This document shows, piece by piece, positions 4,672 to 59,567 of a stretch of 64,000 nt of DNA (position 1 is its first letter; each line of letters starts with the position of its first letter). Origin of the DNA: a virus. The DNA is taken from positions 32,001 through 96,000 of the IMG/VR virus record IMGVR_UViG_3300048694_000674. One strand, written 5' to 3'. Made by a program: the position numbers and the translations under genes. The notes under the pieces were generated by a model. The model was not told the DNA's origin. It saw nothing but the letters and a program-made list of their open reading frames with translations, and searched no databases.

Positions 4672-4674
4672 TAT

Positions 4675-4744
4675 AATAAATAATGTTGCGAGCTTATGCT
4701 CAACATAACTAATATGATTAATACAAACAATACGGAGAATACAA
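4675..4744 (+). promoter_or_regulatory. gene 32 leader: late promoter, hairpin and A-rich putative autoregulatory operator
   Basis: AATAAATA at 4675; hairpin ATGTTG-CGAGC-ttat-GCTC-AACAT; AATAC x3 around the GGAG RBS, analogous to the T4 gene 32 translational operator. Confidence 0.5.
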
Positions 4745-7824: not shown

Positions 7825-10259
7825 TATCTTCTTGCTCTACCGATGTGATGATGCAATCCCTGATATGCCGCATACCCAAGAGCAACAGTTCCGAGTATCT
7901 CGAACACACGTCTGATCATATCATCATTGCCACCATCAACAACTCCAGGCTGTTTTGGTTTTGCTGTTTTGCTTTCAACATGCTTATCCAGTTTCTTTGA
8001 GACTACTGGTTTTGGTGCTGGTTGTGAAACAGAAGGAAGACCACTGAATTGATATGGGCTTACTGATCCAAATGTTTGAACACTTGGAGAAATTGGATAT
8101 AATTGTGCTGCTGGAGTGGCTTGACCTGGACCCAGAGGTAAACCAGATACTGGATCTATCGAATAAGGTTTGTCTGTACCTTTTAATGCTCTTTCGAGAA
8201 TATCTCCCTGTTCAAATTCATATCCAAAAGCTGGTTGATAATCTTCAACATTTATTGCGCCAATTTCGTCCAAATATGCGCCAGCTCCTCTGCGAGCTTT
8301 ATATCTATTAGCAGCATCAGTTAATGAAGCGCCTCTGCCAGCTAAAATATCGCCAACCTGTTTTAAATTTTTACTTCGATCTTCAACATCTCCTGGGACT
8401 GCTTTATTAGCTTCAACGAAATCATCCCACTGTGCGCTTGCTTGACGTACTGTTTGGCCAAGCACTTGAGACATTGGAGTTAATGGTACATCGGTTAGAG
8501 TTGGAGGATTCAATCCACCACTCCAATCAGCAATTGGAATTCTAGTATCAGTAGTTGGCGAGCGAGCTGCTGCAGGTGTTGTTTGAGGAGTTGCTTGCGC
8601 TGGCGTTTGTGTAGTTGTTACTGGAGCTGTATTAGTGTTTGTTAAATTAGCTTTAACTTCTTGGTTTGTGGCTACTGTACCACCACCCATCTTAGCACTA
8701 ATTGATGTTAGTTTTGCTCCATAATCTGGATCTGTTGCATATCCAGATCTGGATTGAGCGGCAATAGCTTCATTGATATTTTTAGCAGCAATAACACCTT
8801 TATATCTTTTATCAGACATTAAAAGATTAACATAATCTGCAGCTGATTCTGTTGGATCGCTATAAGATCTGAAATTCTGTTTGGTGGTAACCATTTTACC
8901 ACCAACAAACTCTTGTGTGGTAGCACTTACAGAATTTGGACCAGAACCTTTTATTCCGAACGCATTATTTCCAACCATGCGTCTACCATATCCAGTTTCA
9001 AGTGAAGTTTGTGTTGCTCCTAGTTGAGCAATAACTTCTGGATTTGGCACGCCTTTCTCTTTTGCAGCTGCATATACAGCATTGTACATTTTATCATAAT
9101 AACTTTTTTGAGATTCTGTTGCAGGTGAAGGAGCGACGCCTGGAGTTATAGGTGTAGTTGGAGTTGGTGGAGTAATCGCTTGTGTAGCGCCTCCACCTAC
9201 TATCGGTGTTTGTGTTGAAAGATTAGGTGTTCCCTGTGGCGTTTGTATTGATGCTGCTGGACCAGTTGCTCCACTAGAAGCGCCACCACCTCCACCCATA
9301 CCGCTAGCAGTAGAAGTTGTGCTACTTTTTGAATCGATCGTTAACGTACCAACTTCAAATGTAAGTTTCTGTGCACTGAAACGTAACTCATCAGCTTTAA
9401 ATGTTATATTGTTTTTGCCACCTCTTTGTTGAGCTTCAGCTATAGCCTGAGATTGTTTCTTATTGTCGCCAAAGAAATAGTCATATCCTTTTTGACCAAG
9501 TTCACTACCAGCTATTGAACCACCAATACCACCAATGACTCCACCTGCAAGAGAACCAAATGGTCCTCCAATCATTCCCAGCGCAGCACCAGCTTCAGCT
9601 CCTGCAATACCGCCAGCTAAAGCACCACCACCAGCTGTTGCAGCTTTACCAACACTACCAGTTTGTTCATAAACATCTGATGCTTCTAATGCAGCACCAA
9701 TACCAGGAAGTAATTTTCTACCTAAAAATCCACCAATTCCTGGACCTTTGACTTTACCACCAACTCCTTTTGGCGTTTTACCACCAGCTGCAGGTTTAGC
9801 TCCACCACCAACACGACCAATTGGAATTTTATCTGTCAGATTTTTGATAGCATCTAATATACCACCACCATCTTTTGATATATTACCAATCTTTTCGGCG
9901 ATCTCAGATAGTAATGTTGATGATTGTTCCATCTCAGCCAGTTGTTCTCTGAGAATGGTATTATTATCACGTATATAATCTTGGATTGATTCGAGCTCTA
10001 ATCTAAGTTCAGCTTTATCTCGCTTATCTTCATTGTCGAGCTTCTGTTTGTCTTCTTGAAAAACCTTACGTTGTTTTTCATTATTATACGTATCAGGGAA
10101 AATGGAACTGAGAAACTTGGCATATCCAGGAAGCGTTTCCTCGATTGCTTTACCTTCTTCGTCGGTAAATCTATCCTGTTTGTCGCGATAAATGTTTCTG
10201 CCGCCAACAACACCCACAAACTCGTGACCAAGTTTATTATTCTTTTTCTTTTTAGCCAT
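7824..10259 (-). CDS. Tape-measure/gp29-like protein with GH73 (FlgJ-like) glucosaminidase domain
   Basis: Coiled-coil N-terminus, glycine-zipper region (GGALAGGIAGAEAGAALG), LETGYG...NNAFGIK...YATDPDY motif; follows gp26/gp51. Confidence 0.78.
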   Translation of the reverse strand: MAKKKKNNKLGHEFVGVVGGRNIYRDKQDRFTDEEGKAIEETLPGYAKFLSSIFPDTYNNEKQRKVFQEDKQKLDNEDKRDKAELRLELESIQDYIRDNNTILREQLAEMEQSSTLLSEIAEKIGNISKDGGGILDAIKNLTDKIPIGRVGGGAKPAAGGKTPKGVGGKVKGPGIGGFLGRKLLPGIGAALEASDVYEQTGSVGKAATAGGGALAGGIAGAEAGAALGMIGGPFGSLAGGVIGGIGGSIAGSELGQKGYDYFFGDNKKQSQAIAEAQQRGGKNNITFKADELRFSAQKLTFEVGTLTIDSKSSTTSTASGMGGGGGASSGATGPAASIQTPQGTPNLSTQTPIVGGGATQAITPPTPTTPITPGVAPSPATESQKSYYDKMYNAVYAAAKEKGVPNPEVIAQLGATQTSLETGYGRRMVGNNAFGIKGSGPNSVSATTQEFVGGKMVTTKQNFRSYSDPTESAADYVNLLMSDKRYKGVIAAKNINEAIAAQSRSGYATDPDYGAKLTSISAKMGGGTVATNQEVKANLTNTNTAPVTTTQTPAQATPQTTPAAARSPTTDTRIPIADWSGGLNPPTLTDVPLTPMSQVLGQTVRQASAQWDDFVEANKAVPGDVEDRSKNLKQVGDILAGRGASLTDAANRYKARRGAGAYLDEIGAINVEDYQPAFGYEFEQGDILERALKGTDKPYSIDPVSGLPLGPGQATPAAQLYPISPSVQTFGSVSPYQFSGLPSVSQPAPKPVVSKKLDKHVESKTAKPKQPGVVDGGNDDMIRRVFEILGTVALGYAAYQGLHHHIGRARR

Positions 10260-23469: not shown

Positions 23470-23484
23470 ATTGGAGAAATTTTC

Positions 23485-25614
23485 TTGTCACAAGTTATAA
23501 TCAATATTGGTAATGCTCCAAACGATGGAACAGGCGACGCTCTTCGCACAGCATTTGATAAGACAAACCAAAATTTTACAGATCTTTATGACACAATTAG
23601 CACAGTTACTAATGGTCTTGTCAATAGTTCGCAACTTTCTGCCAATCTAAGTAATTATCAAACTACTGCTGGTTTATCTGCTAACGTCGCAAAGCTTACT
23701 GCCAATACAACAACATTTGTTGGGTCAGTATCTGCAGCTAACGTTGTGTCTAATGCCCAACTCACTGCCAATCTCACAAATTATGCTCTATTATCAAATG
23801 CCAATTTTACAGCTAATGTTAATGTGACTGGTAGCGCAAATCTTAGCTTAGATCTTAATGTCGGTAGAAACCTGACTGTGGCTGGTAATCTTACAGTTAG
23901 TGGTAATACCTTCATTGTTGGTGCGAACAATCTAATCGTTCAAGACGCTGTTATTTCTCTTCATACAGCAGCCAATCTTGCTCCTCTTGTTTCAAATGAT
24001 GGTAAACTTGTTGGTGTTGCGTTCCATTATTATGATAGTTCAGATAAACAGGGTCTCCTGTCGCTCAATCAATCAAATGCATTCTTAACTTATTATAAAA
24101 CATCATCAGATGCATCTGTTGGTGATCCAGTAGGAAACACATTAGGAACAATTCAAGCTGATACATTCTATGCTGGTAATGGTTCTGTTTATGCAACAGT
24201 AAATTCTACAATTTATTCTGGAACTGCTAATAACGTAACATATGTAGGTAATGTAACTGCTGCTAACGTTGTATCGAATAATCAACTACAAGCTAATCTT
24301 GGTAACTACCAGACGACTGCAGGATTGAATACGAATATTGCTGCCTATCTTCCATTGTATAATGGTATAGTTAATGCAGCTTCTATCAATGTTGGTTCTT
24401 CATTTATTGCCAATAGTACACAAGTATCTCTTTCTAGCACACCACTATCAGCCAATGGTTCTAATGGAACTTCTGGTTATGTGCTGACTTCCAATGGTTC
24501 CACTGGCTCTCCATATTGGCAGTCGATGGGTTCTGTTGGTGTCAATACTTCTGCTCAGTATACTTGGACAAATACTATATTCTATGCCAACAATATACAA
24601 GTGCTTGGTAACAATAGTCTAATCGTTAATGCTGGTGCAAAAATTATTGACTCTGTTGGTTCTCAAGGTACTGCTGGGCAGGTTCTTACATCAAATGGTG
24701 CAGGTAATGTTTATTGGGCAGCTGCGGCTGCTGGTGTAAACTCAGCAGCCCAGTATACTTGGACCAATACTCATACATTCTCAAATACAGTAACCATCAA
24801 TAACAATCTATATGCTAATGTTGTAAATGCTACATCATATAATACTGGTACGATCTATGGCACAACGCTTGGTGGTTTCTTAGCTAATACTACATTTATG
24901 GGTATTGGTAACTCTGCTACTAACGTTGCGATCAACACAACAGCAATTTCGATCGGTGGTGGCGCTGCGACACTGAATAGCACAGTATATACTGGCACAT
25001 CAAATAATGCATCATATCTTGGCGGTAGTTTAAACTTTTCAGCTAACTCTTCTCAGCTTACTTTAAATACAATACCTTTTTCTGCTAATGGTGGAAAGGG
25101 TAGCGCTGGGCAGGTTCTTACATCAAATGGTTCTACTGGTTCACCATATTGGTCAACAATATCGACTAACGTTTCAGCTCAATATGCATGGACCAATACA
25201 CAAACATTTTCTAACACAGTAACATTCAGCGCAAATATTGACCTGAGCGGTAGCACTATTCAAAACTACCAGGAATATGCTAACGGTTATGTCAATACAG
25301 GAACTGCTATTACTGTTTCAGCTAATAGTAATATCGTAAGATATACACTAACAAATAATTGTACAATTACACTGCCTTCTGGGCAGCCTACTGGCACAAA
25401 TGCTATGAAGAGTATTGTTGTTATGTTAAAACAAGATGCGACTGGCGGTCGTACTATGGCATTTGCTGCTCCATCTGGTCAATCAATCAAATATAATAAT
25501 TCTGCAACTCAGCCAGCAGTGGTTAGTGATGCAAATAAAGTTACAATTTATGTTTGTCAGAAATACGACGGCGATACGGCATGGTACATTTCATTATCGT
25601 ACATCGATGCGTAG
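23485..25614 (+). CDS. Baseplate-attached fibre protein with gp9/gp10-type N-terminus
   Basis: INIG..PNDGTGD.LR.AF.K.N.NF..LY N-terminus; GQVLTSNG...YW repeats; TTG start with GGAG RBS. Confidence 0.82.
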   Translation: MSQVIINIGNAPNDGTGDALRTAFDKTNQNFTDLYDTISTVTNGLVNSSQLSANLSNYQTTAGLSANVAKLTANTTTFVGSVSAANVVSNAQLTANLTNYALLSNANFTANVNVTGSANLSLDLNVGRNLTVAGNLTVSGNTFIVGANNLIVQDAVISLHTAANLAPLVSNDGKLVGVAFHYYDSSDKQGLLSLNQSNAFLTYYKTSSDASVGDPVGNTLGTIQADTFYAGNGSVYATVNSTIYSGTANNVTYVGNVTAANVVSNNQLQANLGNYQTTAGLNTNIAAYLPLYNGIVNAASINVGSSFIANSTQVSLSSTPLSANGSNGTSGYVLTSNGSTGSPYWQSMGSVGVNTSAQYTWTNTIFYANNIQVLGNNSLIVNAGAKIIDSVGSQGTAGQVLTSNGAGNVYWAAAAAGVNSAAQYTWTNTHTFSNTVTINNNLYANVVNATSYNTGTIYGTTLGGFLANTTFMGIGNSATNVAINTTAISIGGGAATLNSTVYTGTSNNASYLGGSLNFSANSSQLTLNTIPFSANGGKGSAGQVLTSNGSTGSPYWSTISTNVSAQYAWTNTQTFSNTVTFSANIDLSGSTIQNYQEYANGYVNTGTAITVSANSNIVRYTLTNNCTITLPSGQPTGTNAMKSIVVMLKQDATGGRTMAFAAPSGQSIKYNNSATQPAVVSDANKVTIYVCQKYDGDTAWYISLSYIDA

Positions 25615-43600: not shown

Positions 43601-44019
43601 GCGGCGGCGGTTTCACAAATGGTCAGTCGATATCAGTAAACAATTTCGTAATTACTGGTGCATTTACAGCAAACAGTTCTAATGGTACAGCTGGCCAAGT
43701 ATTAACAACTAATGGTTCTGCTACATACTGGTCAACAGTATCTATTCCTATGGTCGTTGTTACTGGAACAACTCAGACAGCTACTATAAATAACAGGTAT
43801 GTACTGACCAATGCTGCGGCAACAACAGTAACGTTACCAGCATCTCCTTCTGCTGGCGATACTCTTTATATTGTTGTAGCAAATGGCTTAGCAACAAATA
43901 TAGTTGCCAGAAATGGTAATAAAATTATGTCTACTAGCGAAGACTTAACATTAGATGTGAATTATTATTCGTTGGGTCTTATGTATGTTAATTCAACTTT
44001 AGGATGGGTGATTATATGA
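40627..44019 (+). CDS. Tail fibre protein (1130 aa), sequon-rich, with gp9/10-like C-terminal adaptor domain
   Basis: GQ.L.SNG...YW repeats; F.GDG.TT.F...V.VNGV domain; C-terminal TVTLPASP..GD...RNG.KI...DLTLD...GW. Confidence 0.85.
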   Translation: MTDVFQSKLLTDSLIIQSVPELDGIANTDANNFFVNTSTIHIGNTSVSVTITPNNVTTPSVFVGDAFQNTTITPTTLTILDITGANTYIDNFIASFPAEVIVGGSITITGDLAANGATGNTGQVLVSDGNGSIYWGDANNTAYLGGVAAAGYQTTAGLSANVATLTANNTLYLGGTAAAGYQTTAGLNANIAAYLPNYTGTVNATTINATTATFTGNVSVSSLIVTGNVEVIGANNLSISDNMIYLNANSTYSNPDLGFAGNYNDGTYHHAGFFRDHSSGVWKVFDNYGPEPDASQYIDQTNTTFHIANFQANVVYVGNTSVYSTVNTTNFTGTANNTLFVGSVSAANVVSNAQLSGNLASYATTSSLSSYQTTAGLAANVATLTSNNSTYLNGQPDTYYTNATNISSGTLAWARAPAGTVNTSGNFIIGGNLNFTASNTYFTTAIYAAGQVVINPSGDLVISNGAGIQANGTFGTAGQILYTDGSGNDYWGDPGTTIATANNALYLGGVAAAGYQTTAGLASNVATLTANNTSFVGSVSAANVVSNAQLSANLANYQTTAGLNANIAAYLPTYTGVVNASSLTLGTAVTVNSTGLYTGTTTDTTTGTGATIANDTLIFIGNNTINTSITAGSISVNGTAVVANSTGIFTTSTVNAASHTTGATGTGTGGISANVTTLLIGNNTINTTITSAGLTVNGTAVVANSSGVYTTGTINATSFTIGTTTTVNSTAVYVSNTTGNVTIGPYGVTITANGLGYLTMGNTTVNTVVNATSVYIANTTGNVIMSPYGITVAANGLGFYKLGNSTVNSTSNASGFFTTGTANASSLTVGTNFIANTTQLTITIPLSANGGTGSAGQVLTSNGATGAPYWATGGGGGFSNGQSISVNNFVITGAFTANSANGTAGQILTSNGSATYWSTLPSAVRQQFTGDGSTTIFTVTGGYSANNLDVFVNGVKVRNGTDVTVTNGSTFTFTLAPPNGSLIDVIGSAASGGGGFTNGQSISVNNFVITGAFTANSSNGTAGQVLTTNGSATYWSTVSIPMVVVTGTTQTATINNRYVLTNAAATTVTLPASPSAGDTLYIVVANGLATNIVARNGNKIMSTSEDLTLDVNYYSLGLMYVNSTLGWVII

Positions 44020-44744
44020 AGAAAATTTTTATTGGTACTCCTGCATATGATGGTAAAGTCGATGTTCCTTATGCGATGGCGCTGCTGGATACATGCGAAT
44101 TATTGAAGTCCTGTTTTTATGAACCAATCGTAAGAGTTCCTGTTTCTGGTTCTCTTCTTGTTGCAGAAAGAAATAGATTAATTGAAATGTTTTGGCAATC
44201 AAATGCTGATTATATGTTGTGTATTGATAGCGATTTAGGTTGGAATCCATATTCAGTAATAAGATTATTAAATTCTGGTAAGGACGTATGCGGTGGTGTT
44301 TATCCTGGCAGAAAGGGAAATGGATTTACATTTAGACCATCTCTTCAGCCAGATAAACAAATTGAAATGTGTCCAGAAACTAAATTGTTGAAAATGGAAT
44401 ATATTCCAGCTGGATTTATGCTTTTTAGTAGAAAAGTTATTGCTGCTATGAGAGAGAAATTTCCAGAACTATATTATTCCCCAAAAGATCCAAGAAATGA
44501 TTCTGAAAGTGCATTTTGTTTCTTTGATACACAGGTTTATGAAGGCGAATTTTGGGGCGAAGACTACGTATTTTGTAGAAGGGTAAGAGAAGCTGGTTTT
44601 GATATTTGGGTTGATCCGATGATTGAGTTTAATCATGGTGGAACATGTGGTGCATTGATTCAGTCTCTTACTACTGATAAGAAATTAGCAGGGGTAACAG
44701 AAATAAATGACATCACCAGCGAAATCCAGCACGCCTCAGCTTAA
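44016..44744 (+). CDS. Glycosyltransferase-like protein (GT-A/GT2-like fold)
   Basis: IGTP.Y, ERN.L, CIDSD (DxD), G.YP, GFML.SR, GED..FC, DP.I...H.G motifs; ATGA overlap with the fibre gene stop. Confidence 0.8.
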   Translation: MKKIFIGTPAYDGKVDVPYAMALLDTCELLKSCFYEPIVRVPVSGSLLVAERNRLIEMFWQSNADYMLCIDSDLGWNPYSVIRLLNSGKDVCGGVYPGRKGNGFTFRPSLQPDKQIEMCPETKLLKMEYIPAGFMLFSRKVIAAMREKFPELYYSPKDPRNDSESAFCFFDTQVYEGEFWGEDYVFCRRVREAGFDIWVDPMIEFNHGGTCGALIQSLTTDKKLAGVTEINDITSEIQHASA

Positions 44745-47094: not shown

Positions 47095-49920
47095 ATGAGC
47101 AATGCTAGTAATTTCAGACCAGATCCAGTATCTTTACCAATAGGTACAGTAAAGAAAGAAATATTCGTTGGTACTCCTAATACTGGAGTGACAACTCCAA
47201 CAACTCTTACTGAAAATGGTGTTTGGCTTTTATCTGGTTCTACTTATGCACAAGCAACGTATCCAGCGCTATATAACCAATTAGGATTGTTACGTGGTAC
47301 AAGCCCAATACCAAAAACAACTGGCAGTACAACAACAATTAATGCTGCAGTTTATGGTGCTGGTCTTTATGTTCTTTCTGCAACTGATGTTTATTTAACT
47401 TCGACTGATACAAATGTTTGGACTACGAGATCTTCTGGTACATCATCGATAATATATTCAACAGCATATGGTAATGGAATTTATCTTTATGGCGGAGCTG
47501 GCGGCGCTCTAGCAACTTCTACAGATGCAATAACTTGGACTCAAAGAACATCTAACTCATCGACATTTTTATATACATTGGCGTATGGTAATGGCGTATA
47601 TCTTTATGCAGGATCTGGTGGTGGTTTAGGATCTTCTACAGATGCAACAACATGGACAACAAGAACTTCAGGAACAAGTTCTGCAATACAAGATCTTGCA
47701 TATGGTAACAGTTTATACGTATATGTTGGGGCTGGTGGTGTAACAGGCACATCAACAGATGGTATAACTTGGACATCAAGAACATCTGGTGCTGCGAATG
47801 GCGGTTCTACTACTACTCAGGCTTTAAATGGTGTTATCTACGCTAACGGATTGTATGTTTCAGGAGGAGCTGCTGGTACAATTATAACAAATACAAACCC
47901 AAATGGAACTAACTGGACAACCAGAACTTCTGGAACTGCATCAATTATATATTCTGTTGCTTATGGCGCTGGCGTTTATGTATACGCTGGGGCTGGTGGT
48001 GTATTAGCTTCATCAACTGATGGTACAACATGGACATCCAGAACTTCTGGTACAACATCTATTATTCTTGATATTGTTTATGGTAATGGCGCTTTTACGT
48101 ATGTTGGCGTTGCTGGTGCCACTGGTTATTCAACTGATGGTATAACTTGGTTTTCAGGTATTTCGTTGACAACATCTTCATATGAATCTGTTACTTATGG
48201 TAATGGTGTTTATGTTACTGGAGGTTATGGTGGATTATTAAAAATTTCAACTAATAATTTGACAAACTGGTCTCCATATTCAAACTTTATAACATATGGT
48301 AATGGTAAATTTGTTTCTGCTTCTCAGGCTTATGTAGAAACATCAACGGATGCTTATACTTGGACAGCAAGAACTGCATATACAAATAAAGCAATATCGT
48401 TTGTAAATTATACCAATGGTATCTATGTATATACTGGATTACTTGGTAACTACGGATCATCAACAGACGGTATAACTTGGTCAGCAAGAAATGTTGATAC
48501 AGGATCTGTTCTTAGAGCGACGGCGTATGGTAATGGTACTTATGCGATGGGTGGAACTGGTGGCGCTCTTTTATCAAATTCAGATTCAACGCTGAAATTA
48601 TTCACATCTAGAACTTCTGGCACTGCTTCACAAATTTTAGCAATGGTATATGGTAACGGCGTTTTTGCTTATGGAGCAGTCAGTGGTGGTTTAGGATCTT
48701 CTACAGATGCCATTACGTGGACAGCAAGAACTGCAGTAAATACATCCACAGTAAATGCTATGGCATATGGCAATGGTACATATGCGCTTGGAGGAAACCT
48801 TGGTGTATTAGGATCTTCTACAGATGCCATTACGTGGACAGCAAGAACTGTTGTAAACACATCAACAGTATATGGAATGACTTATGGCAACAGCTTATTT
48901 GTTCTTGGCGGTCATTTAGGGTTAATTGCTTCATCACCCGACGCTATTACTTGGACATCAAGAACAGTTGTAAATACTTCAACAGTATTTGCTGTTACAT
49001 ATGGTAATGGTACATATGTTGTTGCTGGTCATCTTGGCGTTTTAGGAACAAGCACAGCTCCAGCAACTGTCGCTTTTTCTGCTAAAACATCTGGTACAAC
49101 ATCTTCTATTCGTAGTTTGACGTATGGTAATGGTATTTATGTATTTGGTACAGATGCTGGTGGTATTAGCTCTTCTACAGATGCAACAACATGGAATGCA
49201 AGAACTTCTGGAACGACAGTTACAATTTGGTCGCTTAGTTATGGTAGTGGTACTTTTTATTATGTTGATAACAATGGATCTGCTGGTACTTCTACTGACG
49301 GCACTACTTGGTTACCATACAAAGCAGGTCCAACAACATCAACAATAAACAGTGTTGTTTATGGCAATAGTTTATATTTATTTTCTGGAACTGGTGGTTA
49401 TTTAGTAACAACAACCAATTTCAATACATGGACAGTTCAAACATCTGGCACAACATCTAATATTATTGCAGTATCGTATGGTAATGGATTGTTCCATTAT
49501 GGTGGTGTTGGTGGTGTGTTAGCCTCTTCTACTGACGCTGTTACTTGGACAGCTAGAACACCTGGAGTGGGAACAGCAACTATTGAATCTATAACTTATG
49601 GTAATGGTAATTATACTTTAGTTGCTGATTCTGGCTGGATGAGTACATCAACAGATGGTATTACTTGGAATCTAAAACCAACAAATACCACCTCTACGCT
49701 GAATAATATAACATATGCTAGTGGAGCTAATACGCATCTGATAAGTGGTATTACTGGTTATTTCGCTGTGGCAAATAACACATCATTGATAAATTATTCG
49801 CCTACATATGATGTTAGCACTAATTTCTATGTACCATCATTTACTGGTCAGGGAACATTTGGTACAGTTACTTTAGGTTCTCAGCCTGTAATACAAACAT
49901 ATGTGAAAGGTAAAAACTGA
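47095..49920 (+). CDS. Long Asp-box-like multi-propeller protein (941 aa)
   Basis: About 20 YGNG...STD..TW..RTSGT repeats between collar-like halves. Confidence 0.8.
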   Translation: MSNASNFRPDPVSLPIGTVKKEIFVGTPNTGVTTPTTLTENGVWLLSGSTYAQATYPALYNQLGLLRGTSPIPKTTGSTTTINAAVYGAGLYVLSATDVYLTSTDTNVWTTRSSGTSSIIYSTAYGNGIYLYGGAGGALATSTDAITWTQRTSNSSTFLYTLAYGNGVYLYAGSGGGLGSSTDATTWTTRTSGTSSAIQDLAYGNSLYVYVGAGGVTGTSTDGITWTSRTSGAANGGSTTTQALNGVIYANGLYVSGGAAGTIITNTNPNGTNWTTRTSGTASIIYSVAYGAGVYVYAGAGGVLASSTDGTTWTSRTSGTTSIILDIVYGNGAFTYVGVAGATGYSTDGITWFSGISLTTSSYESVTYGNGVYVTGGYGGLLKISTNNLTNWSPYSNFITYGNGKFVSASQAYVETSTDAYTWTARTAYTNKAISFVNYTNGIYVYTGLLGNYGSSTDGITWSARNVDTGSVLRATAYGNGTYAMGGTGGALLSNSDSTLKLFTSRTSGTASQILAMVYGNGVFAYGAVSGGLGSSTDAITWTARTAVNTSTVNAMAYGNGTYALGGNLGVLGSSTDAITWTARTVVNTSTVYGMTYGNSLFVLGGHLGLIASSPDAITWTSRTVVNTSTVFAVTYGNGTYVVAGHLGVLGTSTAPATVAFSAKTSGTTSSIRSLTYGNGIYVFGTDAGGISSSTDATTWNARTSGTTVTIWSLSYGSGTFYYVDNNGSAGTSTDGTTWLPYKAGPTTSTINSVVYGNSLYLFSGTGGYLVTTTNFNTWTVQTSGTTSNIIAVSYGNGLFHYGGVGGVLASSTDAVTWTARTPGVGTATIESITYGNGNYTLVADSGWMSTSTDGITWNLKPTNTTSTLNNITYASGANTHLISGITGYFAVANNTSLINYSPTYDVSTNFYVPSFTGQGTFGTVTLGSQPVIQTYVKGKN

Positions 49921-50171: not shown

Positions 50172-50885
50172 ATGAAAATAATGATTGCTACGCCTACGCA
50201 AAATAGTATGTGTACTATTAACTATACTGCTTCTATGATTAATCTGTTCAAAGAAGCAGCAAAATATGATGACTTTGAATTAGAATTTTTATATGGTACG
50301 AATGAAGCTCTAGTAACTCATGCCAGAAATTTATGTGTAAATCTTTTTTTAAAATCAGATGCGACTCATTTGCTTTTTATAGATTCGGATATTCAATTTC
50401 ACCCAAGTCAAATTATACAAATGATTAGAACTAAATCTGACTTTGTTTGTGGCATATATCCAAAAAAAAAGATTGATTGGGAAAAGGTAAGAGTTGCTGC
50501 ATTACATGGCGTACAGGCTCAACTATTGCAATCACATTCAAACGAATATTTGGTTGTACCTTCTGCTAATACAGAACCACTAGAAAATGGGTTGGTAGAA
50601 ATTGATAGAGCAGCTACTGGTATGATGTTGATCAGTAAAACTGTATTTGAAACATTGAAAGATAAGGTGAACGCATTCAATCTAGTTGCGCCAGTTCAAT
50701 CCAATATTCAATACGGTCAGGATGAAAAATATTATGAGTTTTTCTATTCTCAAATTGAACCAGAAACTAATTTGTTTCTCAACGAAGATTTTAGTTTTTG
50801 TAAATTGTGGATAGATAATGGTGGTAAGATATACGGCGCACCATGGGTAAAATTGTTTCATGTCGGTAATCATGTTTATGGATGA
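50172..50885 (+). CDS. Second glycosyltransferase-like protein (GT-A/GT2-like)
   Basis: IATP, ARN....FL...ATHLLFIDSDI, G.YPKK, TGMMLI...VF, ED..FC..W...GG.I motifs; AATAAATA late promoter at 50136. Confidence 0.82.
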   Translation: MKIMIATPTQNSMCTINYTASMINLFKEAAKYDDFELEFLYGTNEALVTHARNLCVNLFLKSDATHLLFIDSDIQFHPSQIIQMIRTKSDFVCGIYPKKKIDWEKVRVAALHGVQAQLLQSHSNEYLVVPSANTEPLENGLVEIDRAATGMMLISKTVFETLKDKVNAFNLVAPVQSNIQYGQDEKYYEFFYSQIEPETNLFLNEDFSFCKLWIDNGGKIYGAPWVKLFHVGNHVYG

Positions 50886-50894
50886 GGTATTATT

Positions 50895-51425
50895 ATGAGA
50901 AAAGAATTATTGATTGGTTGTGGAGCTCAGAGAAAAAAGGTTTTGTTCTCAAAAGGAAACGAGAGCTGGAGTAATTTGGTAACATTGGATATTGAAGCTG
51001 TTCATAAGCCTGATGTTATTCATGATCTTTGTGTTTTACCATATCCTTTTGAGAGTGATGAATTTGATGAAATTCATGCCTACGATGTTTTAGAACATAC
51101 TGGACAACAGGGAGATTATAAATTCTTTTTTGCTCAGTTTAGTGAATTTTGGAGAATACTAAAACCGAATGGTATGTTATTCGCAAAATGTCCTTCTTAT
51201 AAATCGAGTTGGGCATGGGGTGATCCAGGTCATACTCGTATAATTCAGTCTAATACTTTGGTATTTTTAAAACAACCAGAATATACTAAGCAGATCGGCA
51301 AATCGCAAATGACTGATTATCGTTCAATATACAAAGCAGATTTCCAAGAAGTATATGTAAAAGAAACAGATGAAGATCTATTTTTTGTTATGAAAGCTAT
51401 AAAACCATCCAGAATAAGCATCTAA
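50895..51425 (+). CDS. Class I SAM-dependent methyltransferase (type 11-like)
   Basis: LLIGCG, LDI...PD..HDL...PYPF...FDEI.A..VLEH, E.WRILKP.G motifs. Confidence 0.88.
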   Translation: MRKELLIGCGAQRKKVLFSKGNESWSNLVTLDIEAVHKPDVIHDLCVLPYPFESDEFDEIHAYDVLEHTGQQGDYKFFFAQFSEFWRILKPNGMLFAKCPSYKSSWAWGDPGHTRIIQSNTLVFLKQPEYTKQIGKSQMTDYRSIYKADFQEVYVKETDEDLFFVMKAIKPSRISI

Positions 51426-53379: not shown

Positions 53380-53678
53380 GATACATTAAGCTAGAAACCT
53401 TAGAATACCCACGACACCAAGGGGATATTCGACTTGAATATCCAGAAATGGGAGAACAATTTGTTTGTCCAGATACATATGCTTTTGTTGATTTGGATTT
53501 AACACCTGAGTACGATCCAGATACACATACATTCGAATGGCAGTTTCCTTCTAATGAAAATGGAAAATGGATTCAAAAAGCAAAGGTAAGATTATTAACT
53601 CAAGATGAAATTGATAATAAAAACAAATTTATAAATTTAAATCAAGTATATGGGACTGCACCAGATGTTATCGGTTAA
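53376..53678 (+). CDS. Small fibre-associated (chaperone-like) protein
   Basis: YP....DIR...P, P.YD...P....G.W.Q...V..LT..E motif. Confidence 0.65.
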   Translation: MRYIKLETLEYPRHQGDIRLEYPEMGEQFVCPDTYAFVDLDLTPEYDPDTHTFEWQFPSNENGKWIQKAKVRLLTQDEIDNKNKFINLNQVYGTAPDVIG

Positions 53679-54012
53679 ACCAATCGAAAATATTGGCGAT
53701 CTTCGTGGTGGTATATATGACTTCGAAAAATCAGGAGATATTTTACCGAAGCACGTTCACACTGAAGACAATGTTCACATAACTATTGTCGCTCGTGGAC
53801 GTATCAAAGCTTATAGCCATGATTGGGAACAAGAAGGATCTGCAGGTCAAATACTCAACTTTCGACCCGATGAGCCTCATGAAATTATGGCCTTGGAAGA
53901 CAATACTCGTATTATCAATATACAGAAAAAGATGGGCGGAGTTTATTCTTCAGATACAGACTTATTGAGTTTGGACAGGGAAACATCGACTGCAACCATC
54001 GACCAACTATAA
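53665..54012 (+). CDS. Cupin-domain protein
   Basis: LPKHVH....H.TIV.RG and P...HE..ALED metal-binding cupin motifs. Confidence 0.82.
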   Translation: MLSVKPIENIGDLRGGIYDFEKSGDILPKHVHTEDNVHITIVARGRIKAYSHDWEQEGSAGQILNFRPDEPHEIMALEDNTRIINIQKKMGGVYSSDTDLLSLDRETSTATIDQL

Positions 54013-54015
54013 ATA
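54008..54015 (+). promoter_or_regulatory. Late promoter TATAAATA
   Basis: Exact consensus 30 bp upstream of 54045. Confidence 0.75.
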
Positions 54016-54044: not shown

Positions 54045-54455
54045 ATGGCTGGTTTATCATTTAATGTTCAATCTGGTGTAAATCTTCAGAGCAATACGAT
54101 TCAGAATTATACTGAATTTGCTACTGGATCTTCATTTACAGGAACTTCTGCTACAGTTCCATCTAACACCAACGTTGTCCGATATATTCTGAATAACAAT
54201 ACAACAATCACTCTTCCATCAAGTCAGCCAGGAGTTTCAAACGCTCTCAAGACGATTGTTCTTATGTTCACACAGGATGCTACTGGTGGAAGAACGATGA
54301 CACTGGCAGCTCCTTCTGGAGAATCAATCAAATACAATAACGCATCTACACAACCAGCAGTTGTTAGTGGAGCTGGCAAAACAACAATCTATACATGTAT
54401 GAAATTTGACTCTGACACTGTTTGGCGTGTAGCTCTTTCTTATATCGACGCTTGA
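54045..54455 (+). CDS. Fibre adaptor protein, paralogue of the C-terminal domain of 23485-25614
   Basis: Near-identical TIQNY.E.A...QDATGGRTM..AAPSG.SIKYNN..TQPAVVS...LSYIDA. Confidence 0.85.
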   Translation: MAGLSFNVQSGVNLQSNTIQNYTEFATGSSFTGTSATVPSNTNVVRYILNNNTTITLPSSQPGVSNALKTIVLMFTQDATGGRTMTLAAPSGESIKYNNASTQPAVVSGAGKTTIYTCMKFDSDTVWRVALSYIDA

Positions 54456-54471: not shown

Positions 54472-56247
54472 ATGCCAGGAATAGCATTTTCGCTTTTAAT
54501 GAAGTCGATTGTACCAGCCAATACTCAGACGTTTACGGCTAATGGTACATATACTGTTCCTTATGGTGTAAGAAATATCACAGTATCAAACGTCGGTACA
54601 GCAGGTAATCCTGGCAATCCAGGGAATCCAGGAGCCTCTGGTAATGCTGGTGGTACAGGAAATCCAGGTAATGCTGGCAATCCAGGAAATAACGGCGCTG
54701 CAGGAGCAGCAGGTAATGCTGGTAATCCAGGAAATAATGGCGCAGGTGGTGCTGCAGGTAATCCAGGAAATGCTGGATCTCCTGGTAATGCTGGTAATCC
54801 AGGAACTCCAGGATACGGTGGTAATGGCGGCGCAGGTGGTTATGCTGGTGGTGCTGGTAATCCAGGATATAACGGTTCTGCAGGTAACGGTGGCGCTGGC
54901 GGTCCAAATGGTGGTCCAGGAAATCCAGGAAATGCTGGCAGTATTGGTTATGATCCATCAAACGATACATACTACGGAATAAACGGTAATCCAGGTAATC
55001 CAGGAGCAAGTTATTCTGGTGGTTACTCTGGTGGCGCTGGCGGACCAGCTTCATATGTTTACGATTACAATTATAATGTTTCTTATTATAACGGTAGTGG
55101 TGGTACTGGTGGATCTGGTGGATCTGGTAGCCCAGGAAATCCAGGCTCTGCTGGTGGCGCTGGGTATTCAGGTTATCCTGCAACTGGCGGTTATCCAGGA
55201 AATCCAGGATCATATGGTAGCGCAGGTTCTGCAGGAAATCCAGGATCTGCAGGTAATTCTGGTACAGGAACGCCAGCTGGTAACGCAGGTAACAATGGAA
55301 ATCCAGGAACGGGTACACCTGCAGGTGGAGCTGGAAGTGATGGTACAAATGGTACATCAGGAAATCCTGGAGCTGCAGGTAATGCTGGCGCAGATGGTAC
55401 AAATGGAACTGCTGGTAATCCAGGAAATGGCAACGCAACATTCTACAACAATTCTTATTTTACACTAACATTTACAGCTGGTAATGGTGGTACTGCAGGT
55501 ACTAAAGGAACTGGTGGTGCAGGAGGAAATGGTGGCGCTGGCGGTAATGGTGGCACTAAAGGAACTGCTGGTAATCCAGGAAATCCAGGAACATACGGTA
55601 ATGCTGGTACTAAAGGAAATCCAGGCAATGCTGGTACATATGGTAATGGTGGTAACGGTGGTGCTGGCGGTGCTGCAGGTAATGCTGGTGGATTAGGAGC
55701 TCCAGGAAATCCAGGAAATGATGGTACTGCTGGTAATGGTGGTTCTGCAGGAAATCCAGGTAATCCTGGTAATGCAGGAAATCCAGGAGGTGGTGGTACA
55801 GGTGGTAACTCTGCTACAGGATTTGGTTCTCCAGGAGCTGGTGGACCAAGTAATCCAGGAACTGCTGGTAATGCTGGTACAGGCGCTACTGCTGGTAATC
55901 CAGGATATTCAGGAAATCCAGGAAATGCTGGTACGCCAAGTTATGCTGGTTCAGGTGGATCTGGTAGTCCAGGAAATCCAGGAAATCCAGGAGTAGCAGG
56001 AAACCCAGGAAATGGCGCAACAGCAGGAAATCCAGGATCTGCAGGTAATTCTGGTACAGGTGCTACTGCTGGTAATCCAGGAAATCCAGGATCTGCTGGT
56101 AACCCAGGATCTGCTGGCAATTCTGGAACTGCAGGTGGAGCTGGTAACGGTACAACAACACAATCTTCAAATACTGTATCTTTGGTAACATACAACTTTA
56201 CAGTAGCTCCAGGAGGATCAACTACAATATCATATGCTAGACAATAA
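54472..56247 (+). CDS. Collagen-like / glycine-rich (Gly-X-Y, GNP-rich) fibre protein
   Basis: About 500 residues of G-X-Y triplets between short beta-strand termini (TFTANGTYTVPYGV; YNFTVAPGGSTTISY). Confidence 0.88.
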   Translation: MPGIAFSLLMKSIVPANTQTFTANGTYTVPYGVRNITVSNVGTAGNPGNPGNPGASGNAGGTGNPGNAGNPGNNGAAGAAGNAGNPGNNGAGGAAGNPGNAGSPGNAGNPGTPGYGGNGGAGGYAGGAGNPGYNGSAGNGGAGGPNGGPGNPGNAGSIGYDPSNDTYYGINGNPGNPGASYSGGYSGGAGGPASYVYDYNYNVSYYNGSGGTGGSGGSGSPGNPGSAGGAGYSGYPATGGYPGNPGSYGSAGSAGNPGSAGNSGTGTPAGNAGNNGNPGTGTPAGGAGSDGTNGTSGNPGAAGNAGADGTNGTAGNPGNGNATFYNNSYFTLTFTAGNGGTAGTKGTGGAGGNGGAGGNGGTKGTAGNPGNPGTYGNAGTKGNPGNAGTYGNGGNGGAGGAAGNAGGLGAPGNPGNDGTAGNGGSAGNPGNPGNAGNPGGGGTGGNSATGFGSPGAGGPSNPGTAGNAGTGATAGNPGYSGNPGNAGTPSYAGSGGSGSPGNPGNPGVAGNPGNGATAGNPGSAGNSGTGATAGNPGNPGSAGNPGSAGNSGTAGGAGNGTTTQSSNTVSLVTYNFTVAPGGSTTISYARQ

Positions 56248-56266
56248 ATTGAAAGGATAACTTATT

Positions 56267-56962
56267 ATGTTTTTTGGTGATGATAAAATTAAATTTATGT
56301 GCGATCCAAGAATGATAGAGGTAATACCAAAACCTTATCCAGCAAGAAAGTATATTCCAGATTGGTATAAAAAGCTTTCAAACCATTGGATGGATAAAGA
56401 TGGTTATGAAACGCCAACAATCAAAAGATGTCCACCATTCCTTGATGCAATGTCAGCTGGTTGGATTATACCTTTCCCAGCAGACACATACGTTCAAGTA
56501 TTTGATGATGGTTCTGGAATAAAATGGAAAACAGATTTCTTTGCTGATACAATTTCAACACATAGTTTGAACCAGATAGAAACTCATCCAAAAGTTCCTA
56601 CTGTGCCCGTAAAGGTTTTGAATTACTGGATGATTCAAACTCCTCCAGGATGGTCTTGTGCTTTTGTGCCACCTCTAAATAGACCAGACGATGTTTTCGA
56701 TCTATTATCTGGTATTGTTGACACAGATAAAAACTTTTGGGAATATGTAAATTTCCCAGGATTTCTCAAAGCAAAGGAAGGCTCGTTCAAAATACCGAGC
56801 GGTCATCCTATGATGCAGGTAATACCATACAAAAGAAACTTCAACAAAGAAGCAGAAGTCAGAGCACTTACTCCAAGAGAAATGCAAAAAGTGCAGAAAC
56901 ATCGCGATAAACATTCAGCAAATTTTAGTAATTATAGAAACAACATGTGGGAAAAGAAATGA
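56267..56962 (+). CDS. DUF6065-like protein
   Basis: TIK.CPPFLDAM..G.IIP, W.I.TPPGWS..F..P.N, GIVDTD...NFP motifs. Confidence 0.65.
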   Translation: MFFGDDKIKFMCDPRMIEVIPKPYPARKYIPDWYKKLSNHWMDKDGYETPTIKRCPPFLDAMSAGWIIPFPADTYVQVFDDGSGIKWKTDFFADTISTHSLNQIETHPKVPTVPVKVLNYWMIQTPPGWSCAFVPPLNRPDDVFDLLSGIVDTDKNFWEYVNFPGFLKAKEGSFKIPSGHPMMQVIPYKRNFNKEAEVRALTPREMQKVQKHRDKHSANFSNYRNNMWEKK

Positions 56963-57495
56963 TTACAAATCCTCTTTATTGGTCATGGAAAAAAGAAATA
57001 CCAGATTCTGTTTGTGATGCTATTATCGAAGAAGGTAAAAAGTTAGAATTGAAAGATGGTCTTGTTGGAGATGAAAAAAAGCTAAACAAATCTATCAGAA
57101 ACTCTCAAATAGGTTGGTTCTCGAATATTACATGGGTTGCTGGTATTATGCGACATTATACTGAAGTTGCAAATAATCAGGCTTGGAATTTTAAACTAGG
57201 ATACATACAAAATCCACAGTTTACGATCTATTCAAAAGGTGGATTCTATGGGTTTCATCAGGATTCTAGCGTTGTCAACGATGGTATGCGAAAACTGAGC
57301 TGCGTAATAACAATAACCAAACCAGATGAGTATGAGGGCGGCGAATTTGAGTTTGAAGACGGTACAGTTCCAGATATTAAGGAAAGAGGGTCTATTATTG
57401 TATTCCCATCATTCCTTCGTCATAGAGTAAGCCCAGTTACTTCAGGAACAAGGTATTCATTGGTCTCTTGGTATGAAGGTCCGAAGTTTATATAA
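56959..57495 (+). CDS. 2OG-Fe(II) oxygenase, prolyl-4-hydroxylase/PKHD-type
   Basis: FH.D, RKLS, YEGGEF, G..IVFPS..H.V.PV..G.RYSLV.W (HxD...H...R) motifs. Confidence 0.92.
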   Translation: MITNPLYWSWKKEIPDSVCDAIIEEGKKLELKDGLVGDEKKLNKSIRNSQIGWFSNITWVAGIMRHYTEVANNQAWNFKLGYIQNPQFTIYSKGGFYGFHQDSSVVNDGMRKLSCVITITKPDEYEGGEFEFEDGTVPDIKERGSIIVFPSFLRHRVSPVTSGTRYSLVSWYEGPKFI

Positions 57496-57498
57496 ATA
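57491..57498 (+). promoter_or_regulatory. Late promoter TATAAATA
   Basis: Exact consensus upstream of gp13. Confidence 0.8.
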
Positions 57499-57526
57499 CA
57501 AATAAACACTAATAATAGGGTCCAAA

Positions 57527-58264
57527 ATGGCTGTTCCAAGAACCAGAGATGAATTCAAGACATATTGCCTTCGTAGATTAGGAGCTCCTGTTATTGAAAT
57601 TAACGTCGATGATGATCAGGTCGATGATCGTGTGGACGAAGCTATTCGCTATTATTGGGACTATCATTTTGATGGCGCAGAAAAGGTTTACTACAAGTAC
57701 AAAGTAAACGCTGTTGACATAACAAACAGATATATCACAATGCCAGACAACATCATCGGCGTTGTCAATCTATTCCCTATCGGTCAGGCTCTCAATACAA
57801 ACAATCTGTTTAATATTCGTTATCAAATTGCATTGAACGATCTTTATACTTTGACATCAGTTTCGATGGTACCATACTATATGGCGCTTACTCATGTTCA
57901 GTTTCTTGAACAGTTTCTTGTTGGCCAGCAGCCACTCCGCTATAACAGAATGATCAATAAGTTGTATATCGATATGGACTGGACAATCATCAATGAAGGC
58001 GATTATCTAATCGTCGAAGCATATCAGGTTGTTGATCCAGCTGTTTATCCAAAAGCATTTGGCGAACGCCTACTACAGAACTATGCTTCTGCGTTGATCA
58101 AAGAACAGTGGGGAACGAATTTAAAGAAATTTGGTGGTATGCAACTTCCAGGTGGAATTACATTTAATGGCCAACAAATATATGATGAAGGTCATAATGA
58201 AAGATTAGAAATTGAGAAACAAATCTATGATAGCAGCCTACCAATTACAGATATGATAGGCTAA
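57527..58264 (+). CDS. gp13: Neck protein
   Basis: YCLR.LGAPVIEINVDDDQ..DR.DEA, QWG.NL.KF.G.QLPGG...NG motifs. Confidence 0.97.
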   Translation: MAVPRTRDEFKTYCLRRLGAPVIEINVDDDQVDDRVDEAIRYYWDYHFDGAEKVYYKYKVNAVDITNRYITMPDNIIGVVNLFPIGQALNTNNLFNIRYQIALNDLYTLTSVSMVPYYMALTHVQFLEQFLVGQQPLRYNRMINKLYIDMDWTIINEGDYLIVEAYQVVDPAVYPKAFGERLLQNYASALIKEQWGTNLKKFGGMQLPGGITFNGQQIYDEGHNERLEIEKQIYDSSLPITDMIG

Positions 58265-58266
58265 TT

Positions 58267-58989
58267 ATGGCAACCAATTTCTACTTCAATAATTTTAAGC
58301 AGTCACAAGAACAAAACCTGCTTGAAAATTTGATCATTGAAGCGATCCGTATATATGGTGAGGATATGTATTATATCCCACGTAATATTAATAATCTAGA
58401 TCAGCTCTATACAGCCGACGATCAATCATCATATACACAAACATTCATGCTTGAGTTCTATATCAAGTCCGTTGATGGTTTTTCTGGTGATGGTAACTTC
58501 ATGTCTAAGTTTGGTCTTGAGATTCGCGATCAGGTTGTATTCTCTGTCGCACAAAAAGTATTCAATCAGGAGATTGGTTCCTATACTACATTGACAAGAC
58601 CACGTGAAGGTGATCTAATATTCTTTCCACTGAACAACAAATGTTTTCAGATCAAGTATGTAAATAAGTTTGAGATGTTTTATCAGTTAGGCGCATTACA
58701 GACATGGGAAATGACTTGTGAATTGTTCGAGTATTCTAACGAAGTATTCAATACAGGTATACCAGAGATCGACGCTATTCAGACTAATTTCAGTACCAAC
58801 ATAATTGATTATAGCGTAAAAGACGAACAAGGTCAAGCACTTTTAGACGAAGAAGGAAATTATATTGTTATGGAGCAATATGATTTAGCAACAATTATTG
58901 GTACTGGCGAGAATGATATTATTCAACAAGAATCAGATCAATTTGTTGACTTTACGGTTCAGGATCCATTTAGCGAGGGTCATGTGTAA
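58267..58989 (+). CDS. gp14: Neck protein
   Basis: EQ.L...L..E.I..YG...YY.PR, SKFG..I.D, RP.EGDLI.FP, FYQLG, CELFEYS motifs. Confidence 0.97.
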   Translation: MATNFYFNNFKQSQEQNLLENLIIEAIRIYGEDMYYIPRNINNLDQLYTADDQSSYTQTFMLEFYIKSVDGFSGDGNFMSKFGLEIRDQVVFSVAQKVFNQEIGSYTTLTRPREGDLIFFPLNNKCFQIKYVNKFEMFYQLGALQTWEMTCELFEYSNEVFNTGIPEIDAIQTNFSTNIIDYSVKDEQGQALLDEEGNYIVMEQYDLATIIGTGENDIIQQESDQFVDFTVQDPFSEGHV

Positions 58990-59567
58990 TGTACACATAT
59001 TTAATTGGATGGAGCGATAAAAATATATTTTATTATGGTGTTCGTTATGCAAAAAAATCTGATCCAAACGAATTGTGGAAAACATATTTTACTTCTTCAA
59101 AATATGTAAAATCATTTAGAGAAAAAAATGGCGATCCAGACATAATTCAAATAAGAAAAACATTCAATGATAAAAAAGCAGCTATATTGTGGGAACATAA
59201 AGTTCTCAAAAGATTAAATGTGGTAAAGGATGAAAAATGGTTAAATAAAACAGATAATTTCGCAATCGATTACACATCATCAAAAAGAAATACAATTCCT
59301 GGTATGTTAGCTTCGAAGAAAAAAATTAAAGGTAAAACTTACGAAGAACTTTATGGTCTTGAAAAGGCTGCATTTTTAAAAGAAAGATCAAAAGGAATTA
59401 TGGAAGAGAATTGGAATAACCAAGAAACAAGATTAAAAATGTCAAAAAAACCTTCTGATACTTCGAAATATAAAGAAGCTGCATTGAAAAGATGGGCTAA
59501 CAAAGAACAACGCGAAAAGCTTTGTGCTAGTATGCGTGGTGTTTCTAAAAAGTCCAAGGAGGTGTAA
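58989..59567 (+). mobile_element. Free-standing Seg-like (GIY-YIG variant) homing endonuclease gene
   Basis: YTYLIGW....YYG.RY, YFTSSK, IRKTF...A..WE, WLN motifs; Lys-rich NUMOD-like C-terminus (KGKTYEELYG); AT-rich; inserted between gp14 and gp15. Confidence 0.85.

Follow-up and report, generated by a model that had tools for sequence, protein, structure and literature searches.

A long-stemmed glycine-rich protein, most likely related to phage tail-fibre tips, and its genetic linkage to prolyl-4-hydroxylase-like oxygenases in marine phages

The IMG/VR virus record IMGVR_UViG_3300048694_000674 (141 kb, rated 85% complete) was analysed over a window of 64,000 nucleotides (nt; positions 32,001 to 96,000 of the record), in which the open reading frame (ORF) 54472-56247 on the plus strand encodes P0001, a glycine-rich protein of 591 amino acids (aa) without internal stops. 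The second gene downstream, 56959-57495 (+), encodes a prolyl-4-hydroxylase (P4H)-like 2-oxoglutarate (2OG)-Fe(II) oxygenase, P0003. P0001 is most likely a long-stemmed relative of phage tail-fibre tip proteins and not a free collagen. It probably represents a new long-stemmed variant of the Gly-rich fibre-tip class, and its linkage to P4H-like oxygenases is well supported by comparisons of genes and proteins.

P0001 contains 199 Gly, 89 Asn, 77 Ala and 55 Pro residues. An earlier note, made from the DNA letters alone, had described a protein rich in Gly-Asn-Pro (GNP) triplets with Pro nearly always in the Y position of Gly-X-Y, and this description held: GNP was counted 34 times, besides GSP (4), GTP (4), GYP (2) and GAP (1). 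Twelve Gly-X-Y runs of at least four triplets each, the longest with 40 and 37 triplets, cover 420 aa. Within these runs, Pro was found at Y 42 times and at X once, and Asn occupied 66 of the 140 X positions. Shuffling of the X and Y residues within the runs (20,000 shuffles) placed Pro at Y 21.5 times on average and 34 times at most and gave N-P triplets 5.7 times on average and 15 times at most, as compared to the observed 42 and 34. The Pfam model Collagen (PF01391) scored 77.9 bits against a cut-off of 27.2, and P0001 thus has both the long unbroken runs with Gly as every third residue and the hidden Markov model score expected of that family. Tandem repeats in the gene are degenerate, with periods of 9, 27, 45 and 81 nt only, and there is no clean higher-order unit like the 33 aa repeat of the homologue from locus L045 described below. 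An antisense ORF of 287 aa (54578-55441, minus strand) lies inside the P0001 gene and is most likely a by-product of the GGN-AAY-CCN codon repeat.

A word-indexed search, which returned few matches, yielded four proteins (P0005, P0007, P0009 and P0011) that have the N-terminus VPGGTQTFNxSGTFTVPxGV... and the C-terminus ...NCVPVTPGSPYPIVVGSPGGQVVISWNPQ in common with P0001. With an alignment of these four, 79 IMG/VR loci were retrieved, and a 49-member profile, run against 1.84 billion entries, matched 390 cluster representatives at E<1e-3 and 70 at E<1e-30. Members of the family are conserved in an N-terminal, a central (SSGxxxTFPGG) and a C-terminal block; a typical member is 290-490 aa long and combines runs of just 6-19 triplets with poly-Gly and with irregular, often Cys-rich inserts, and P0001 and the 1245-aa protein of L045 are expanded forms. 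In 45 members, the string GNPG holds 213 of 1320 Pro residues, Asn makes up 61% of X in G-X-P-G and GPxG was found only 62 times. Among the named phages of INPHARED, nothing relevant was found by megablast with the locus or by tblastn with a family member and its N-terminal 44 aa, a result to which the low-complexity filter and the exclusion of near-identical records from the search set may contribute; at that sensitivity, the family is therefore seen only in metagenomic contigs, that is, in uncultured marine phages. Near family loci, giant collagen-like ORFs of ~1100-1280 aa with the repeat (Gly-aromatic/Ile-Ser)n were observed (L097:10939-14256 and L111:3-3851); X is F, Y, I or W and Ser stands at Y in 245-331 triplets, an unusual aromatic collagen-like repeat.

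The gene can be read as an alternation of conserved strands, Gly-rich arms and irregular tips, all on the plus strand. The N-terminal strand set (residues 1-41, 54472-54594) carries the motif TFxxxGTxTVPxGV, which is conserved in the alignments, and AlphaFold2 (AF2) predicted strands at residues 17-21, 25-29 and 36-41 with a predicted local distance difference test (pLDDT) score of 70-80. It is followed by arm 1 (residues 42-161, 54595-54954), 120 aa in 40 unbroken Gly-X-Y triplets, by the Tyr-rich, irregular tip 1 (residues 162-221, 54955-55134), which is the counterpart of variable, often Cys- or aromatic-rich inserts in family members, and by arm 2 (residues 222-320, 55135-55431), 33 in-frame triplets (99 aa) of which three lack Gly (ATG, TPA and TPA). 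The central strand pair (residues 321-336, 55432-55479; AF2 strands 322-325 and 331-334) has the family motif xxTFxGG. Then come arm 3 (residues 337-447, 55480-55812), 111 aa in 37 unbroken triplets with all three Lys residues that occur within arms, tip 2 (residues 448-474, 55813-55893), as read from the sequence, and arm 4 (residues 475-560, 55894-56151), 66-86 aa of triplet blocks with SYAGS, ATA and ATA between them. The C-terminal strand set (residues 561-591 and stop, 56152-56247; AF2 strands 562-566, 574-578 and 583-588) ends in ISYARQ in P0001 and in ISW-x-PQ in most family members.

The AF2 model of P0001 had a mean pLDDT of 45, and values of 65-80 were reached only in the three conserved strand sets, which align as one ~90-residue jelly roll spanning residues 14-591. 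A 289-aa member (L120:2685-3551) modelled with 49 sequences gave a mean pLDDT of 75.7 and a predicted template modelling score of 0.61; here the strands and the four flanking, GNPG-bearing Gly-rich segments had means of ~84-98 over 10-residue blocks, mostly >90. The GNPG strings of this model lie in the four confident stem segments and not in the variable tips, and the Gly-rich segments are neither helix nor strand by DSSP, which agrees with a polyglycine-II (PGII) conformation without being diagnostic of it. The N-terminal, central and C-terminal strands are therefore predicted to form one TNF-like beta-sandwich, and since the three strand sets belong to one sandwich the Gly-rich parts would be two hairpin insertions with four arms. 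A beta-sandwich with paired Gly-rich loops between strands and variable distal tips was thus found, as read from the AF2 prediction and the alignments only.

A search of representatives of the PDB with this fold gave TNF/C1q-type jelly rolls and macroglobulin-type domains in the top rows. CD109 ranked first (Z 6.2) and the fibre protein gp24 of cyanophage Pam3 (7ypx_A) second, with Z 5.8 and a root mean square deviation of 2.5 Å over 83 residues at 23% identity; 7ypx_A was also the first row of Foldseek (E 0.047). Further solved likenesses were the Bxb1 tail tip, ALK (7nx3, Z 4.5) and the C1q and collagen VIII NC1 trimers; the entry 9d93 scored Z 4.5. All Z scores are below 8, a range that the tool rates as possibly generic, so the likeness to Pam3 gp24 and ALK is a lead and not proof. 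A profile of the family alignment gave only low-complexity collagen matches in the PDB (E 0.005 or weaker), and a fold search of BFVD mostly returned "glycine-rich domain" and fibre proteins with template modelling scores of 0.14-0.26, which are leads only.

The most telling homologue is the 1245-aa protein of locus L045 (L045:696-4430), whose arms measure 264, 265, 264 and 264 aa and consist of eight 33-aa repeats each. Its outgoing arms are unbroken (88 triplets) and contain 9 and 11 Lys residues; its returning arms contain 8 and 11 Asp residues and one non-Gly triplet (ATS) per repeat. That the arms are equal and their charges opposite, with a common period, argues for side-by-side, antiparallel packing of the outgoing and returning arms, as expected of a PGII bundle, and antiparallel hairpin stems fit L045 better than a linear collagen rod. 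The two loops are also near equal in length in L148 (199 and 196 aa) and L119 (156 and 159 aa). A family-wide correlation of loop lengths from MAFFT columns was weak (Spearman 0.32) and was not used, because anchors were misplaced (L148). A non-returning rod between terminal domains, as expected for a collagen, is at odds with the one predicted sandwich and the equal arms of L045, and the collagen reading of the earlier note was not borne out for P0001 in the sense of a stand-alone rod, since its Gly-rich parts are predicted to be insertions in one beta-sandwich. The alternative raised in the same note, a PGII bundle or gp38-type adhesin, fared better: the likenesses to Pam3 gp24 and ALK, all with Z below 8, and the arms of L045 fit it. 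From the models and the arm lengths, we consider a PGII-type hairpin stem the probable form of the Gly-rich arms, with moderate confidence, and the label "collagen" is probably wrong in the structural sense.

The oxygenase P0003 probably starts at ATG 56959 (the ORF list gives GTG 56947). As the earlier note had stated, a 2OG-Fe(II) oxygenase with an intact HxD...H...R signature is indeed encoded two genes downstream of P0001: PF13640 scored 56.6 bits against a cut-off of 27, and the iron- and 2OG-binding residues H104-Q-D106, H159 and R169 are intact. In a search with the single sequence, the best solved relatives were PKHD-type hydroxylases (~1e-9), and the P4H of PBCV-1 reached only 7e-3. 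A profile of 15 homologues matched PKHD (6e-15), the P4Hs of PBCV-1 (2e-10), Chlamydomonas (6e-10) and Bacillus anthracis (8e-10, nearly full length) and EGLN1 (1e-4), and it matched nothing outside the PKHD/P4H clade at E up to 1e-3. Because the profile matches are confined to this clade, "prolyl-4-hydroxylase-like" is a fair name at clade level, and to that extent the identity proposed in the note was confirmed; the closest characterised relatives of P0003 are peptidyl-prolyl hydroxylases.

Oxygenases like P0003 were found in 73 of the 79 family loci; the other six are very short or have the family gene within ~1.6 kb of a contig end. Co-occurrence across genomes had been named in advance as a check, and an oxygenase of this type lies within ~3 kb of the family gene in 44 of 45 non-redundant loci. 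The usual order, on one strand and often with overlaps, is a fibre gene ending in a domain like the 136-aa protein of the window (see below), two oxygenase genes and the Gly-rich gene, whereas in the window, L148 and L045 the 136-aa-like domain is followed by the Gly-rich gene, a DUF6065 gene and an oxygenase gene. In other loci, no gp13 gene was found near the family gene, so the module is independent of the T4 core order. Genome G004 (the record of L081; 62 kb, rated 100% complete) gave no match to T4 gp23 yet carries the module of fibre end, two oxygenases and Gly-rich protein, so the module also occurs outside T4-like genomes; this genome has only two PF13640 genes, and both closely precede its family gene.

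A quick maximum-likelihood tree of 117 oxygenases was calculated with a short search and rooted at the midpoint, and therefore only strongly supported groups were used. Oxygenases linked to the family fall into at least four groups: oxyA, oxyB, a downstream group and P0003 with L148, with supports of 96, 98, 99 and 89, respectively, in the Shimodaira-Hasegawa-like approximate likelihood ratio test (SH-aLRT). P0003 and L148 stand outside oxyA and oxyB among oxygenases which neighbour other Gly-rich or collagen-like ORFs; the oxygenase of L045 has the same position in its locus as P0003, yet lies near oxyA in the tree. When the oxygenase was used as seed, a Gly-rich ORF (>=17% Gly) was found in 22 of 80 loci, mostly just upstream and on the same strand, and several of these neighbours are classic Gly_rich_2-type proteins. 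Judged from gene order and sequence, the linkage of family gene and oxygenase is strong, and the operon claimed in the earlier note is strengthened by comparative genomics, as one late cassette whose linkage is conserved far beyond the window.

P0001, we propose, would serve an uncultured, T4-like marine phage as an adhesin-type tail-fibre-tip protein. Its N-terminal, central and C-terminal strands would build a small TNF-like beta-sandwich that projects two long Gly-rich hairpins, that is, four arms with ~70-120 residues of GN(P/A/G) triplets and two irregular distal tips. The arms would pack side by side and antiparallel as PGII or polyproline-II (PPII)-type strands, as in Pam3 gp24, S16 gp38 and ALK but much longer. 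One late cassette would be transcribed for the fibre-end domain, the Gly-rich protein, the DUF6065 protein and the P4H-like oxygenase, and the oxygenase would hydroxylate P0001, with the Pro of GNPG (X-Pro-Gly) in the stems as the most probable target. Hydroxylation would stiffen or stabilise the stems; since GNPG lies in the stems and not in the tips, it should act on stem stability rather than on receptor contact. Phages may, therefore, modify their own host-binding fibres chemically. For the whole model, a hairpin-stemmed fibre-tip protein hydroxylated by the oxygenase of its cassette, we put the chances just short of even.

Several observations, given in this and the following two paragraphs, weigh against this model. 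Besides the low Z scores of every fold match, the long arms of P0001 had a pLDDT of only 33-41. Neither Pfam Gly_rich_2 (PF21722) nor gp38 matched any of 11 family members at E up to 1, and Gly_rich_2 matched nothing in the source record, although neighbour genes in relatives do match Gly_rich_2 (e.g. L121 2299-4401). A tail-fibre chaperone gene was not found in the cassette of the window, while the relative L121 has one for tail-fibre assembly (PF16778) two genes downstream.

The alternative that survives best accepts the fibre-tip protein as described but lets the oxygenase act elsewhere, in DNA or RNA repair, 2OG drawdown, small-molecule chemistry or modification of host proteins, with the fibre region as a slot for accessory genes. 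Published proposals for phage oxygenases name DNA repair, 2OG drawdown and secondary metabolites, and the best solved relatives of P0003, PKHD and PiuC, have no substrate named in their entries. In Pelagibacter phage Mosig (L160 36324-50443), five or six oxygenase-like genes were observed together with a heme oxygenase and pcyA-like genes. This row of oxygenases lies between tail-fibre genes and gp13, the slot of the cassette in the window, and is without a family member. Furthermore, no Gly-rich ORF was found in the examined flanking DNA of 58 of the 80 oxygenase-seeded loci, and some Gly-rich neighbours of related oxygenases are almost without GNP, so that Pro in GNPG cannot be a universal target. 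On the other hand, the linkage holds in two gene orders, across at least four oxygenase clades and at identities of only 35-40%; the phage lacking gp23 has just two oxygenase genes of this type, and these flank the family gene; within the late fibre cassette the oxygenases show translational coupling; and the characterised members of the oxygenase clade act on peptidyl proline. We regard an oxygenase with its target elsewhere as somewhat unlikely.

A true collagen, in which the Gly-X-Y runs form parallel triple helices with 4-hydroxyproline at Y as in animals, is a distinctly unlikely rival; fitted to the hairpins, it would have a trimeric C1q/TNF-like head with several triple helices running out and back. 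It would explain why the runs, with 40 and 37 triplets in P0001 and 88 in L045, have no break at all, why Pro is almost only at Y and why Pfam Collagen scores as high as it does; the jelly-roll likenesses include the C1q and collagen VIII NC1 trimers, and the P4H clade includes the collagen-type P4H of Bacillus anthracis. Collagen helices of 100-264 residues are common, whereas to our knowledge PGII helices are below ~15 residues in length and arms of 100-264 residues are without precedent. However, Gly-rich parts inserted in one beta-sandwich must each return to their origin, all four L045 arms and not only pairs are equal, and their opposite charges at the same 33-aa period point to direct antiparallel contact. 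The short members have runs of only 6-19 triplets that are broken by poly-Gly and Cys-rich inserts, and in P0001 Gly occupies 37 of the 280 X and Y positions and charged residues amount to ~2%, both unfavourable for an unhydroxylated triple helix. As to the arms themselves, a triple helix is improbable, and some other structure altogether is given the same low chance.

2OG-Fe(II) oxygenases abound in marine viromes, and the locus and its relatives offer a concrete candidate substrate for them in a Gly-rich fibre-tip protein with the X-Pro-Gly hallmark GNPG. A more general proposal, that P4H-like oxygenases put hydroxyproline into the GNPG of PGII-type receptor-binding stems and thereby allow stem lengths of tens of nm instead of a few, with four arms of ~100 aa in P0001 and four of 264 aa in L045, is tentative and in our view rather doubtful; if true, such stems would join collagen and the plant hydroxyproline-rich glycoproteins as a third class of PPII fibre stabilised by hydroxyproline, and the system would be the first to tailor phage adhesins enzymatically. 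PGII bundles with strands of 100-264 residues, if that is what the stems are, would far exceed all known ones in length and would make a designable, charge-zippered nanofibre; if the stems are triple helices with hydroxyproline, they would be the first collagen of a bacterial virus that uses hydroxyproline at Y. Either outcome bears on how marine phages build and diversify their organs of host recognition.

The cassette is framed by two copies of the T4-type late-promoter motif TATAAATA, one at 54008-54015 (+), ~30 nt ahead of its first gene, and the next at 57491-57498 (+), which closes the cassette 29 nt ahead of a gp13-like neck gene (57527-58264). In the whole window TATAAATA occurs 10 times as compared to 8.2 by chance, so it is not enriched and its placement before a gene start is the sole argument for a role as promoter. 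The spacing is tight, with 19 nt between the P0001 and DUF6065 genes and an overlap of the DUF6065 stop with the oxygenase ATG as ATGA. From the flanking motifs and this spacing, the genes for the 136-aa protein, P0001, the DUF6065 protein and the oxygenase appear to be transcribed late as a single unit.

The first gene of the cassette (54045-54455, +) encodes a protein of 136 aa which is a stand-alone copy of a ~115-aa C-terminal domain of fibre genes, with a weak match to PHROG 22179 (tail fiber). By jackhmmer, the domain was found at the C-terminal extreme of ORFs of 200-790 aa in 68 loci (median distance to the end, 5 aa). These ORFs are fibre genes that precede the family gene elsewhere, and the 136-aa gene looks like a fibre-end copy that has become detached. 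In the window itself, an ORF of 714 aa (23470-25611, positions 55470-57611 of the source record G000) was observed to end in the same ~130-aa domain (E 2e-55).

The third gene, 56267-56962 (+), encodes a DUF6065 protein of 231 aa (PF19541, 31.2 bits; phrog_7084, 1.6e-55) between P0001 and the oxygenase. Its position is shared by L045 and L148, and the gene occurs in 15 loci. Comparison with the oxygenase profile by hhalign gave a probability of 0.1% and thus no similarity, no solved relative of DUF6065 was found, and the matches in the Atlas were only to DUF6065 or unnamed viral clusters. As seed of the related-locus search, P0002 found no relative; its homologues came from the other locus sets. 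The best matches among named phages were in the haloarchaeal tailed viruses HF1, HF2, HRTV and HCTV (~35% identity over 98% of the length), and in halophage HF1 (L161) the DUF6065-like gene, 48119-49003, adjoins the tail/baseplate module. The locus L045 has three DUF6065 paralogues (4472-5197, 7314-8051 and 8066-8824) and two oxygenases.

The genome of the window carries T4-type gp23, neck and sheath-stabiliser genes, and a psbA gene was not found in it, which together point to a T4-like marine myovirus that is probably not a cyanophage; the source is thus probably an uncultured marine T4-like myovirus. Just ahead of the cassette, at 53650-54012, an ORF of 120 aa is cupin-like, with weak matches to Cupin_2 and AraC_binding, and in at least 8 non-redundant loci a homologue closely follows the family gene. 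Among large fibre-like genes (DUF6242, Kelch-like) stand three ORFs that could be further tailoring genes (44004-44744, 50172-50885 and 50895-51425): two encode phrog_1574 proteins that weakly match glycosyltransferases, and one is methyltransferase-like. A GIY-YIG-like (SegE-type) endonuclease ORF, 58989-59567, lies between the gp14-like and gp15-like genes.

Among known systems, Pam3 gp24 comes closest. It has a TNF-like domain whose strands bear loops, each with two Gly-rich motifs and a variable tip, and it has been likened to S16 gp38 and ALK (PMC9608196). Like this protein (7ypx; kin S16 gp38 and ALK/LTK), P0001 has a predicted sandwich, outgoing and returning Gly-rich motifs and variable tips, and its gene belongs to a fibre module. 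Unlike it, P0001 has two very long hairpins instead of six short loops, arms of Asn- and Pro-rich Gly-X-Y triplets instead of GGGGxGG and no N-terminal helical shaft; there is no significant sequence similarity, the structural Z is only 5.8 and no link to an oxygenase is described for Pam3. The snow-flea antifreeze protein is an 81-aa, six-helix PGII bundle of antiparallel PPII-type strands without a beta-sandwich. Its resemblance to P0001 would presumably lie in the Gly-X-X periodicity, the small residues and GNG/GNPG-like strings, and we assume no relation from it.

With the collagen-like proteins of bacteria and phages (PF01391; Scl1/Scl2, phage fibre collagens), P0001 shares the long unbroken Gly-X-Y runs and a Pfam score above the cut-off. 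Unlike them, it has Pro at Y and not at X, whereas a typical phage collagen in L045 (10870-11784) places Pro at X in 43 of its 70 triplets, it is almost without charged residues, and its runs are inserted in one domain with matched arms out and back. P0003 has in common with the P4Hs of B. anthracis (5hv0/3itq), PBCV-1 (5c5t) and Chlamydomonas (2jig), which its profile matched at 2e-10 to 9e-10, and with the PKHD proteins PiuC and Sbal_3634 its PF13640 core, the HxD...H triad and, 10 positions beyond the distal His, a basic residue; unlike these, it is shorter (178-182 aa), and its match to a named P4H is weak with the single sequence (7e-3).

In the literature searched, no link between phage oxygenases and Gly-rich fibre tips was found. 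Sullivan et al. 2010 described multiple 2OG oxygenases in cyanomyoviruses and proposed 2OG-related or repair roles (PMC3037559), and a study of the Baltic virome called the role of phage P4H cryptic (PMC9301287). Iyer, Abhiman, de Souza and Aravind 2010 assigned the dioxygenase arrays of cyanophages to the synthesis of secondary metabolites and not to fibre modification, and they predicted that bacterial 2OG dioxygenases hydroxylate co-encoded Gly-rich collagen-like/tail-collar proteins (PMC2938197). Unlike here, their prediction was made on bacterial beta-hydroxylase and PhyH operons with sulfotransferases; like here, a dioxygenase gene beside a gene for a Gly-rich tripeptide-repeat protein was taken to indicate an enzyme and its substrate.

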